A stretch of 64,000 nt of DNA from an uncultured Pelagibacteraceae bacterium (GTDB lineage: Bacteria; Pseudomonadota; Alphaproteobacteria; Pelagibacterales; AG-422-B15): assembly GCA_902619105.1 (NCBI GenBank), contig CACNCV010000002.1:17092-81091 (forward strand), given 5' to 3'. The position numbers were made by a program, and so were the translations under genes. Below the pieces are notes generated by a model. That model searched no databases and was not told the origin of the DNA. It was given only the letters and a program-made list of their open reading frames with translations. Shown here in pieces: positions 44,752-60,228 of this stretch. Numbering within the stretch: position 1 is the first letter of the stretch; each line of letters opens with the position of its first letter.

Positions 44752-44844
<93 letters not shown>

Positions 44845-57391: not shown

Positions 57392-57733
57392 ATGGAAAAT
57401 CCACAAAGATATACAAATTATAATGATTTTTTTCCTTTCTATCTAAGAGAGCATAGTAAGAAAAGTACGAGAGTAATGCATTATTTTGGAACAATTGGCT
57501 ATCAAGTATTGTTCTGGTCACTTTTGCTAACTCAAAATTACTTGTTTTTACCACTAATCTTACTCGCTGGTTATGGACCAGCGTGGATTGGACATTTCTT
57601 TATAGAGAAAAATAAACCGGCTACGTTTAAATATCCTTTATGGTCACTCATTGGTGATCACCATATGGCTTATTTGATGCTTACAGGTAAACTTAAGAAA
57701 AAATTATCTGAAGCTGGTGTATCAGCTACTTAA
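57392..57733 (+). CDS. DUF962/Mpo1-like protein
   Basis: FFPFYLREH, GYGPAWIGHFFIEKNKPATFKYP motifs. Confidence 0.88.
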   Translation: MENPQRYTNYNDFFPFYLREHSKKSTRVMHYFGTIGYQVLFWSLLLTQNYLFLPLILLAGYGPAWIGHFFIEKNKPATFKYPLWSLIGDHHMAYLMLTGKLKKKLSEAGVSAT

Positions 57734-58144
57734 AACATAATACGCAGTTCCAAGAAACAATAACAACAAAGCAGTTTGAGAAAAAATCCATATGGCGCCT
57801 CTTGCTGCAGTGTTATTGAAACAGATATGTACAATGGAATGGATCACTCTAAATAATAAATATAACCATGCGCAAATTAGCAAAAATTTGCTTTCAACTT
57901 CAATAAAAACGATAACTCCGATTAGAAAATAAAAAATAACTGAAAACTCAAATATATTTGAAATATTATTTTTTATAATTTTTAAATATACTGGCGCATC
58001 TTTATAAGGTTCAATAGGAATTCCACTTTCCTCCCACTCCTTGCCTTTACCCATTAAATAAACTGATGCGATTGTATGAATTAATCCAATAACAAAAGTT
58101 AATAAAATAAGCCCAAGCGCTGGAACTAAAATATTAGTTAACAT
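57722..58144 (-). CDS. MAPEG family protein
   Basis: NIFEF and RVIHSIVH motifs; TGATG overlap with the upstream paralog. Confidence 0.8.
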   Translation of the reverse strand: MLTNILVPALGLILLTFVIGLIHTIASVYLMGKGKEWEESGIPIEPYKDAPVYLKIIKNNISNIFEFSVIFYFLIGVIVFIEVESKFLLICAWLYLLFRVIHSIVHICFNNTAARGAIWIFSQTALLLLFLGTAYYVLSS

Positions 58145-58581
58145 CAGATCATTAAAGAGCAGGCTCGATAAGCCATCCATGCTAGGATAATCGTAGACGG
58201 TAACCAAAATAGCGTTCTAACTGGTAATGCAACACCAGGTATGATTTTATTATAAAATATGTGAACAATTGAGTGTAGAACTCTTAACCAAAAGAACCAT
58301 GTTGCTAACAACATAAAATACTCATCAACTGTTCCCGTTACATAAATCATAATGCAAACAGCGTAAAAGAAGATTGGAAATTCGAACAAATTTGTCAAAT
58401 TTCGCTGACTATTTTGAATTAATTCGCTGCCGTTTTCAAATGTGGGTATTTTAAAATCATCTTCTGTATTCTTCTTATCGATGACAATGGCCTTTAGTCT
58501 AAGCACTGTTCCAAAGGCAAAAACAGCCAAAGAAAGCCACAGCATATTGATGACTGGCTCAAAAATTAATTCGGGTTGCAT
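58144..58581 (-). CDS. MAPEG family protein
   Basis: NLFEFP and RVLHSIVH motifs; SD aaggag before ATG 58581. Confidence 0.82.
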   Translation of the reverse strand: MQPELIFEPVINMLWLSLAVFAFGTVLRLKAIVIDKKNTEDDFKIPTFENGSELIQNSQRNLTNLFEFPIFFYAVCIMIYVTGTVDEYFMLLATWFFWLRVLHSIVHIFYNKIIPGVALPVRTLFWLPSTIILAWMAYRACSLMI

Positions 58582-58666
58582 AATAAACTCCTTGATTGAA
58601 ATAAGAATCCAGTAAATTATATATACTAATACAGTTTTAACCATATTTAATGAAAGGAGGTGGTCT

Positions 58667-58765
58667 ATGTCTATAGGTAGTATAGAGGAGCTTTGCTCGA
58701 GTAGTGAAATTCCATGTGATTGTAGATGTGGAAACCTCCACTTTTTGAGTGGAGCTCCGTTTTAA
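58667..58765 (+). CDS. Putative 32-aa Cys-rich small ORF
   Basis: SD GAAAGGAGGTG before ATG; MSIGSIEELCSSSEIPCDCRCGNLHFLSGAPF; followed by a terminator. Confidence 0.45.
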   Translation: MSIGSIEELCSSSEIPCDCRCGNLHFLSGAPF

Positions 58766-58772
58766 CTACATT

Positions 58773-58800
58773 AAGCCCCCATTAATTTGGGGGCTTTTTT
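58773..58800 (+). terminator. Rho-independent terminator
   Basis: aagccccc-attaattt-gggggctt followed by a T-run. Confidence 0.85.
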
Positions 58801-59169
58801 TTAAATCTTTAAATTTGGTTTAAATTTTCTTGTTTTATTTTTGTCATTGATAGCGACGTAAGAAAACTCCCCAACCGCCACTTCAACTTCCTTTTGGTTC
58901 ATTTCAGAGCGCATCGCAGTGATTTTGAATATCATTTTCGACTGCTTTACGGATACAATTGATCCGTAAACATTGATGAATTTACCAACATGCATTGGAT
59001 TTTTATATTTAACTTTAGATTCCACTAATACGGCATTTCCTTTTGAAACAAGCTGAGTCATATAAATGCCTCCATGTGCCATTTGTTTAACGATCCAGGC
59101 TCCATGAGCCGTACCATAAGGATTGCTATCCGGTGGTTGACATATATTTCTAATTAAAAGTTTACTCAT
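58801..59169 (-). CDS. Hotdog-fold acyl-CoA thioesterase-like protein (YciA family)
   Basis: PPDSNPYG...GAW...P.HVG pattern and C-terminal YVAIND; catalytic Asp apparently absent. Confidence 0.7.
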   Translation of the reverse strand: MSKLLIRNICQPPDSNPYGTAHGAWIVKQMAHGGIYMTQLVSKGNAVLVESKVKYKNPMHVGKFINVYGSIVSVKQSKMIFKITAMRSEMNQKEVEVAVGEFSYVAINDKNKTRKFKPNLKI

Positions 59170-59550: not shown

Positions 59551-60228
59551 ATGAGCAATATATTAATCATAGGAGCTAATCGGGGTCTTGGACTTGAGTT
59601 TGTAAAGCAATATAGCAATACAAACCATAATATTATTGCAACCACTCGAAATAAAGATAGCTCAAAAGAGTTAAGTGAGATTAATAATATCAATATCGCT
59701 GAACTTGATTTAACTTCTGATACAAGCGTAAATAGTTTTGTAACAAGTATCGGGTCTCAAAAAATTGATATACTCATTCACAACGCAGGAGTTTTTAGTG
59801 ATGAGCAATTAAAAGAAGATCTTGATACAGATGCCTGGATGAATGAAATGAGAATTAATGCTGTGATACCCATAATTCTTGCAAGAAAATTAAAAAATAA
59901 CTTAAAAATGGGATCTGATAAAAAAGTTGTTTTTATATCCAGTCAAATGGGAAGCATTGATGACAATTACTCTGGTAGATTTTATTTTTATCGCTCATCA
60001 AAATCAGCTCTTAATTCTGCAGCAAGAAGCTTATCAATAGATTGGAAAGAAGATGGTATATCTGTCCTTATTTTGCACCCAGGATGGGTAAAAACAGATA
60101 TGGGTGGCACAAGTGCCAAATTAGAGATACCTGAGAGCATTACCCAGATGATCAATGTTATAAATGAACTAAATCTTGATAACTCTGGCTCATTTTTAAA
60201 TTATAAAGGAAAAAAACTCGAATGGTAA
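59551..60228 (+). CDS. Short-chain dehydrogenase (CsgA-like SDR)
   Basis: GANRGLG, SSQMGSI, YRSSK and HPGWVKTDMG motifs. Confidence 0.92.
   Translation: MSNILIIGANRGLGLEFVKQYSNTNHNIIATTRNKDSSKELSEINNINIAELDLTSDTSVNSFVTSIGSQKIDILIHNAGVFSDEQLKEDLDTDAWMNEMRINAVIPIILARKLKNNLKMGSDKKVVFISSQMGSIDDNYSGRFYFYRSSKSALNSAARSLSIDWKEDGISVLILHPGWVKTDMGGTSAKLEIPESITQMINVINELNLDNSGSFLNYKGKKLEW

Follow-up and report, generated by a model that had tools for sequence, protein, structure and literature searches.

The window analysed is a 64,000 nt stretch of SAR11 (Pelagibacteraceae) DNA with an overall GC content of 30.4%. A small unit on the + strand lies within a 218-nt gap between two − strand genes, which encode a MAPEG-family protein and a 4HBT thioesterase. 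The features of the locus are listed here by position, strand and type.

58144–58644, − strand: ORF of the MAPEG-family gene, with a probable start near 58581, behind AAGGAG.
58589–58625, both strands: conserved divergent control region CTCCTTGATTGAAATAAGAATC...ATTATAT, near-invariant among 26 unique copies and L091–L093.
58645, + strand: RNA 5' end (A58645), from contig starts and adapter-abutted ends.
58653–58662, + strand: Shine-Dalgarno (SD) sequence AAAGGAGGTG, from the sequence.
58653–58666, + strand: extended SD AAAGGAGGUGGUCU, with 13–14 nt of complementarity to the assumed 16S 3' tail and a 6-nt distance to the AUG.
58667–58765, + strand: 32-codon ORF, predicted peptide MSIGSIEELCSSSEIPCDCRCGNLHFLSGAPF, with ATG at 58667 and TAA at 58763–58765.
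58677–58769, + strand: rod-like hairpin enclosing codons 4 to stop, from the minimum-free-energy fold.
58677–81 with 58765–69, + strand: helix P1 of the minimum-free-energy fold.
58684–58701 with 58744–58762, + strand: helix P2, including 15 bp that are G-U-rich (58687–58701/58744–58758).
58703–06 with 58739–42, + strand: helix P3 of the minimum-free-energy fold.
58710–17 with 58726–33, + strand: helix P4, the 8-bp apical stem of the minimum-free-energy fold.
58723–58759, + strand: near-invariant 3' arm UAGAU..UGGAAACCUCCACUUUUUGAGUGGAGCUCCG, from the alignment and from loci found through thioesterase homologues.
58734–58739, + strand: anti-SD-like motif ACCTCC, from the sequence.
58736–58754, + strand: alternative local hairpin CUCCACU/AGUGGAG within the 3' arm, from the RNAalifold consensus.
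58773–58804, + strand: intrinsic terminator with a 9-bp stem, a 6-nt loop and U8 (stem at 58773–58796, then eight T).
58801–59169, − strand: 4HBT thioesterase gene, convergent to the small unit.

A sequence-only reading of the window had proposed a stand-alone unit here. The SD, the ORF, the + strand hairpin and the terminator are all found where that reading placed them, and the unit does stand alone, with its own SD, ORF and terminator and a + strand-specific rod-like fold. The locus had also been described as a GC-rich island. The GC content is indeed raised, but the difference is modest (41% vs 30.4% for the window). The window contains tandem MAPEG paralogues, at 57722–58207 and 58144–58644.

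A set of 97 related loci was compared. Forty are GTDB loci recovered through the thioesterase protein, all from Pelagibacteraceae or Pelagibacterales. Fifty are metagenome loci from a scan with the pattern GAAAGGAGGTG-N75-105-TGAGTGGAGCTCC, which fixes parts of both conserved blocks. The remaining seven came from thioesterase homologues without any DNA pattern. The unit is present in 96 of the 97 loci, with one copy in each, and the conserved blocks are each single copy in all 94 records checked. All 40 GTDB loci carry it, at 70–100% nucleotide identity. Of the seven thioesterase-homologue loci, six have the unit, or just its 3' part on truncated contigs, and they add the variants ...EPTTFEGLPNHLDIGNLHFVSGAPN and ...EPMNCVGFPNQLDIGNLHFMSGAPN. 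The loci found through protein (the 40 from GTDB and six of the seven from homologues) agree with those derived from the pattern. The unit is absent from the seventh homologue locus, L095, where the gene context differs. This low-coverage contig represents either a different locus or a chimeric assembly and is treated as uninformative. At positions 1005–1260 it shows a 209-residue thioesterase-like product, then an apparent CrcB-type gene in place of the unit.

The gene order MAPEG (−), unit (+), thioesterase (−) and VanZ-like (−) is found wherever the contig extends. The unit is still kept where the identity of its neighbours drops to 43% (MAPEG), 40–50% (VanZ-like) and 59–69% (thioesterase). 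Within the unit two nucleotide blocks are near-invariant. The first runs from the SD through codon 6, and the second is UAGAU..UGGAAACCUYCACUUUWUGAGUGGAGCUCCG. The more distant surroundings vary. The number of DUF998 genes upstream is one to three, depending on the lineage; about 1.4 kb of other DNA lies between the Mpo1-like gene and the MAPEG genes in L017, L047 and L049; and lineages of the L042, L047 and L060 types do not have the short-chain dehydrogenase gene found at 59551–60228 in the window. A profile search of the thioesterase family found no relatives more distant than about 54–59% identity, and the survey of the unit thus covers this SAR11 group. A scan of viral contigs for the unit gave no match. 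An exhaustive representative search with the 32-residue peptide gave one true relative, P0015, which is of the L017 type and has an N-terminal extension. Two Cys-repeat proteins from the same search are irrelevant.

The unit is transcribed. It is covered by contigs in about 15 marine metatranscriptome runs, with a consistent 5' end. Depth, exact 3' ends and strand were judged from the ends of assembled contigs and from adapter remnants. RNA contigs start at 58640–58650 in seven runs, and 58543–58623 is uncovered. In X31 the Read-2 adapter directly abuts 58644/58645, and in X49, from the distant lineage L046, it is found at the homologous nucleotide (CAU/AUUU, with the slash at the junction). 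X50 has a 132-nt insert bearing both adapters, with the Read-1 adapter on the antisense side. The adapter orientation fits a + strand RNA. These data indicate a discrete + strand RNA of ~155 nt that extends from A58645 to the terminator. Position 58645 may mark a transcription start, or it may be a site of processing, as the CAU/AUUU sequence also fits an RNase E-type motif. The contig depth of the unit is similar to or above that of neighbouring genes, contig depth being a poor measure of expression. RNA contigs, which are unstranded, often cross the terminator into the thioesterase gene. Positions 58855, 58861 and 58873 are common population variants in the 3' part of that gene. Several metatranscriptome contigs stop just before these variants, and contig ends there are for this reason not read as RNA ends.

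The control region has, on its − strand, the AAGGAG SD of the MAPEG gene and a perfect TATAAT (58616–58621), which would suit that divergent gene. The + strand has TTGAAA-N18-TATATA. The promoter assignments in 58589–58625 are putative and are drawn from sequence only. No sigma-70 promoter confidently fits a start at 58645, and TTGAAA-N18-TATATA predicts a start near 58631. The region also holds a GANTC site (GAATC at 58604–58608); GANTC is the CcrM methylation motif. At the other end of the unit, the terminator helix covaries cleanly: it is 99.5% paired in the alignment, and in three of its pairs both partners are changed between lineages. The U tract of the terminator and the thioesterase stop codon (58801–58803) overlap. 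The terminator is thus probably bidirectional, and the same hairpin probably terminates both convergent transcripts.

The SD had been read as a near-perfect complement of the 16S 3' end, and this is borne out over 13–14 nt when the 3' tail of the host 16S rRNA is taken, as we assume, to be the usual bacterial GAUCACCUCCUUU. The duplex between the SD leader and this assumed tail has a delta G of -16.6 kcal/mol. The median best duplex among 69 ORFs of the window is -2.4 kcal/mol, with any start in the first 40 codons allowed, and the strongest plausible true starts reach about -9 kcal/mol. By duplex with the assumed tail it is the only very strong SD within the 64-kb region. Some lineages have AAAGGAGGUGAUC, which is fully complementary to the assumed tail. 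The SD does not vary among the 44 loci obtained by way of the thioesterase protein; for the 50 metagenome loci, its first 11 bases were fixed by the scan pattern itself. The SD–AUG interval is the sole site of a 1-nt indel (GGTCTATG vs GGTCCGATG or GGTCCAATG). Some 10 nt separate the AUG at 58667 from the base of the rod, and initiation would thus need to open only the weak P1 helix. Another ATG, at 58650 inside the SD, is out of frame in the window and opens an 8-codon mini-ORF (58650–58676). Where an extra base precedes the main ATG (L017, L056 and L060 type), the upstream ATG is brought into frame, which gives the 39-residue public call (MKGGGPMSISS..., P0015). This ATG is not conserved and is TTG in several lineages.

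Translation of the ORF is likely, judging from the SD and from the maintenance of the frame. All 26 unique variants keep the frame open, the length is 32 or 33 codons across lineages, and the TAA stop is invariant. The frame table comprises 25 variants (L094 is the 26th), and in these the other two frames have one to five stops each. Indels inside the ORF are of 3 nt, or consist of a frame-restoring +2/+1 pair, which is found ~25 nt apart in the clade containing L038. When the variable segment is shuffled, the frame stays open in 39–80% of trials per lineage, and the openness of this segment is weakly significant (combined p about 0.04 from five fairly independent lineages). Variants of 33 residues are already in public records as 'hypothetical protein'. 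Five peptide variants compared with Pfam and NCBIfam gave no match at E <= 10. The predicted peptide is of 3.5 kDa, and several clade variants have neither Lys nor Arg and would escape tryptic proteomics.

Two stretches of the peptide are conserved, N-terminal MS.xS and C-terminal GNLHF[LMV]SGAP. Codon 28 is TTG, ATG or GTA (L, M or V) and is always hydrophobic. GNLHF[LMV]SGAP is conserved as peptide, and the nucleotides that encode it are equally conserved; at the conserved ends, selection on the peptide is inseparable from selection on the nucleotides. The middle of the peptide is different. Substitutions on the short edges of a minimum spanning tree are 8 synonymous vs 29 non-synonymous, compared with an expected synonymous fraction of 0.20 (p = 0.46), and changes at codon positions 1, 2 and 3 are 9:15:13, without third-position bias. 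The lack of a synonymous excess implies that the middle residues are not under amino-acid selection. Many of the replacements in the middle codons are radical, with cysteines included. By these comparisons the middle of the peptide would be a spacer. The UAGAU segment is conserved in two clades that divide it differently into codons, as U AGA U and as UA GAU. Its preservation in two frames implies a constraint at the nucleotide (RNA) level.

A non-synonymous to synonymous ratio of about 1 without third-position bias, conservation at the nucleotide level, and the strong, strand-specific and conserved fold described below would all suit a purely non-coding structured sRNA, where the ORF and the 'SD' are incidental or the SD is a binding site for the 16S tail. 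However, the ORF is open in all variants and the other two frames are stopped in every tabulated variant. The +2/+1 indel pair restores the frame, 1-nt indels fall outside the ORF, the SD–AUG spacing is canonical and the TAA is invariant. A non-coding RNA is therefore considered rather unlikely.

The peptide of the window had been proposed to be a Cys-rich metal-binding micropeptide, as it has the pattern C-x6-C-D-C-R-C. This C-x6-CDCRC pattern is confined to the lineage of the window. In sister lineages the sequence is YPYDRRY, NQNHVDI, FPVYNRY etc., and only one Cys, partly conserved, is left. One of the clustered Cys is already Y in close relatives with 93% thioesterase identity. With the four clustered Cys in a single lineage and Y, R, N, V or I elsewhere, metal binding is refuted for the family and is barely conceivable even as a lineage-specific novelty. 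A type I toxin was also considered. Type I toxin mRNAs encode a short hydrophobic membrane peptide. The peptide variants here are all polar or acidic, without a hydrophobic stretch of transmembrane length, and this candidate was rejected.

Secondary structure modeling of positions 58640–58802 gives a minimum-free-energy fold of -61 kcal/mol. Dinucleotide shuffles of the same segment fold at -37.1 +/- 3.8 kcal/mol (z -6.3), and none of 200 is as good. The opposite strand folds worse, at -43.6 kcal/mol (z -4.7), a difference to be expected if the structure belongs to a + strand RNA rich in G-U pairs. The hairpin is plus-strand-specific (-61 vs -43.6 kcal/mol), as had been claimed. The pairing first proposed between 58687–706 and 58739–58 is reproduced at 19 of 20 named positions in the model, which also displays the 8-bp apical stem (58710–17/58726–33) and the outer pairs (58677–58681/58765–58769). 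The rod spans about 93 nt. Its internal loops are small, without a central bubble, and its apical loop is GAUUGUAG.

The same rod is the minimum-free-energy structure in every lineage folded. About half of the bases in the 5' arm differ between clades, and the 3' arm is almost invariant, synonymous sites included. Dinucleotide shuffling of the 5' arm only gives z values of -2.3 to -4.0 in seven lineages, with 0–5 of 300 shuffles as good. Projection of the window's rod onto a sequence-only alignment gives 77% paired cells, compared with 37–50% when the partners are slid by 1–3 columns. Because the 3' arm is invariant, most changes in the rod are one-sided, i.e., G-C to G-U and A-U to G-U. A few changes are compensatory, among them the replacement of A-U by G-C in the UAU or UGU segment and of apical CCAU/AUGG by CCAA/UUGG.

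RNAalifold, applied to the sequence-only alignment, chooses the CUCCACU/AGUGGAG hairpin over the rod. This is because pairings of the 5' arm shift register between clades. The register shift also makes strict covariation statistics for the rod weak, and shuffling per lineage was used instead. The closing pair of the alternative hairpin (A-U, U-A, G-U) covaries, as does the terminator helix. Relative to the rod, the alternative folds carry a penalty of +5 to +11 kcal/mol when they are forced, and this holds in every lineage. The sequence-only reading had suggested that the SD could be sequestered by pairing with ACCUCC. This is not upheld, as in most lineages the ACCUYC motif already has its pairing partners within the rod and the forced alternatives carry the energy cost just given.

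The unit matches no known RNA family in Rfam, as the first reading had anticipated. No family reaches the gathering score, and at E <= 10 there are only terminator-like partial matches to unrelated sRNAs. The only match in the window that reaches the gathering score is a tRNA-Ser (anticodon TGA, with a long variable arm) at 44752–44841. ARAGORN likewise found this tRNA-Ser and no tmRNA in the window. 6S RNA is a rod of about 180 nt with a large central bubble, the domain IV of bacterial small SRP RNA has conserved loops with a GNRA tetraloop, and tmRNA has a tRNA-like domain and a tag reading frame. 6S RNA (RF00013 and relatives) gave no covariance-model match at the gathering score or at E <= 10. 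A divergent 6S-like RNA, one of the candidates named at first, is rejected on this result and on the ~93 nt rod without a central bubble. Small SRP RNA also had no Rfam match, and the apical loop is GAUUGUAG. No tmRNA, the two-piece alphaproteobacterial form included, was found by ARAGORN or Rfam. A riboswitch reading was also rejected. The unit is like 6S and 4.5S SRP RNA in the overall rod-like hairpin of a small stable RNA. It differs from them in having no covariance-model match, about half the 6S length, no central bubble or SRP domain IV motifs, and in carrying an SD and an ORF. A divergent housekeeping RNA (6S, SRP, tmRNA) or a functionless terminator-associated inverted repeat would account for the rod-like shape, but the Rfam and ARAGORN searches are negative, the rod is too short and without the defining loops, and conservation is far above that of the neighbouring genes. 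These possibilities are very improbable, and taken jointly with the metal-binding micropeptide they still amount to only a slight chance.

RNAIII/hld, SgrS/SgrT and SR1/SR1P are dual-function small RNAs. The unit is like these in being a small, independently terminated and highly structured transcript with a short ORF. As in a dual-function sRNA, the transcript is independent and has its own ends (58645 in two lineages, the terminator, and discrete contigs). It is unlike them in that no sequence relationship was found, and the pairing and coding regions, which are largely separate in these RNAs, coincide here. The suggestion that the unit is a dual-function RNA or a novel sRNA is still a live reading.

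Stand-alone sORFs are already a known feature of SAR11. The sORF-1, sORF-2 and sORF-3 motifs of HIMB5 are stand-alone small-ORF motifs (Stav et al. 2019, PMC6429828). Their peptides are Ser/Lys-rich, have a PPDT motif, or are Lys-rich (PMC6429828, Table S1), and sORF-2 combines an ORF with hairpins (PMC6429828). As in the HIMB5 motifs, which have hundreds of metagenomic variants, there is a short conserved ORF with a ribosome-binding site and its own terminator, no co-directional regulated gene, and a restriction to SAR11 (PMC6429828). The unit differs in sequence, peptide and flanking genes, its ORF lies within one long rod, and its SD is extreme. Membership in sORF-1, sORF-2 or sORF-3 was rejected, as the published peptide descriptions and gene contexts do not fit (PMC6429828). 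Neither the SAR11 motifs of Meyer et al. 2009 (PMC2704228) nor the other HIMB5 motifs (PMC6429828) include the unit. No description of this unit, its rod, its extreme SD or its dual-constraint pattern was found in the literature compared (PMC2704228, PMC6429828), and it is regarded as a new example of stand-alone sORFs or dual-function small RNAs.

The unit also resembles leader-peptide attenuators and ribosome-arrest peptides (trpL, TnaC, SecM) in its short ORF, unconstrained middle, conserved C-terminus, competing hairpins and nearby intrinsic terminator. It is unlike them in that there is no same-strand downstream gene, the terminator is outside the alternative folds, and there are no runs of regulatory codons. 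A leader-peptide attenuator was rejected. The convergent thioesterase gene is next in every locus that extends far enough, with no co-directional gene, and the alternative folds use the rod and the SD, with the terminator stem uninvolved. A leader- or arrest-peptide-like sensor acting in cis may be envisaged instead, in which ribosome pausing on ...HFxSGAPx-stop would control read-through of the terminator. Read-through into the convergent thioesterase-VanZ operon would then give antisense RNA or transcriptional interference. Conservation of the last 11 residues next to an unconstrained spacer is a pattern also known from arrest peptides. Many upstream-ORF regulators are present in SAR11 (PMC6429828), and some RNA contigs cross into the thioesterase gene, though they are unstranded. 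On the other hand, a co-directional downstream gene is found in no locus, the terminator has no alternative pairing to the rod, and contig ends also coincide with polymorphic sites. The distance from stop to terminator is 7 to 13 nt, varying by lineage, so that masking of the terminator by a ribosome on the stop codon would be unreliable. We regard this cis-acting sensor as improbable.

The best explanation, held with roughly even confidence, is that the locus is a SAR11-wide stand-alone small gene, both translated and a structured RNA, under peptide and RNA-structure constraint. The unit is transcribed, and both its fold and its frame are kept. According to this small-gene explanation, the exceptionally strong single-stranded SD would recruit the 30S subunit, and the ribosome would initiate at AUG 58667, ~10 nt before the base of the 93-nt rod. 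It would then have to unzip the rod to make the 32–33-residue peptide. The peptide is conserved in its first few residues and in the C-terminal GNLHF(L/M/V)SGAP, with the middle as a presumed spacer. The rod would most likely set RNA stability and translation rate. The 5' arm, which encodes the unconstrained spacer, may drift as long as complementarity is kept. The 3' arm may be frozen because coding of the conserved C-terminus and pairing with the 5' arm are both required. Against the small-gene explanation stand the lack of a synonymous excess in the middle codons, the weak significance of the open variable segment, the conservation of UAGAU in two frames, and the negative protein-family searches with the peptide.

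A second explanation for the unit is a dual-function, translation-gated regulatory RNA, which is a less likely, tentative possibility. The nearly invariant 30-nt 3' arm, with ACCUCCAC inside it, would be a hidden trans-acting seed or a protein-binding site, and translation of the 5' arm would unmask it, tying the activity of the RNA to ribosome availability. Even synonymous sites that could vary under both known folds are invariant in the 3' arm, UAGAU is conserved regardless of frame, and the middle codons evolve neutrally. The alternative local hairpin with its one covarying closing pair and an exceptional SD in a genome whose genes mostly have weak ones also point in this direction. However, peptide coding, rod pairing and limited evolutionary time could jointly explain the invariance of the 3' arm, and the ACCUYC motif is paired in most lineages. 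There is also no homology to known sRNAs in Rfam. A more speculative reading, which we think unlikely, is a stand-alone translation sensor, where the unit reports ribosome or anti-SD availability and the output is release of the hidden RNA seed or ribosome arrest. This could be based on the near-perfect 13–14-nt complement of the 16S tail, the ribosome-unzipped rod, the frozen 3' arm and the C-terminal nascent-peptide motif. If true, it would be a regulatory principle not described for SAR11.

SAR11 is the most abundant marine bacterium and dominates the surface ocean. Its extremely streamlined genomes encode few regulators and contain little non-coding DNA. In such a genome, a 155-nt unit that is kept better than the neighbouring enzymes very likely matters to the cell. 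The unit adds an uncharacterised small gene or RNA to SAR11 and offers a clear natural example of peptide and RNA-structure constraints that overlap. If the RNA is regulatory, it would be relevant to the question of how SAR11 regulates its genes with such a small set of protein regulators.
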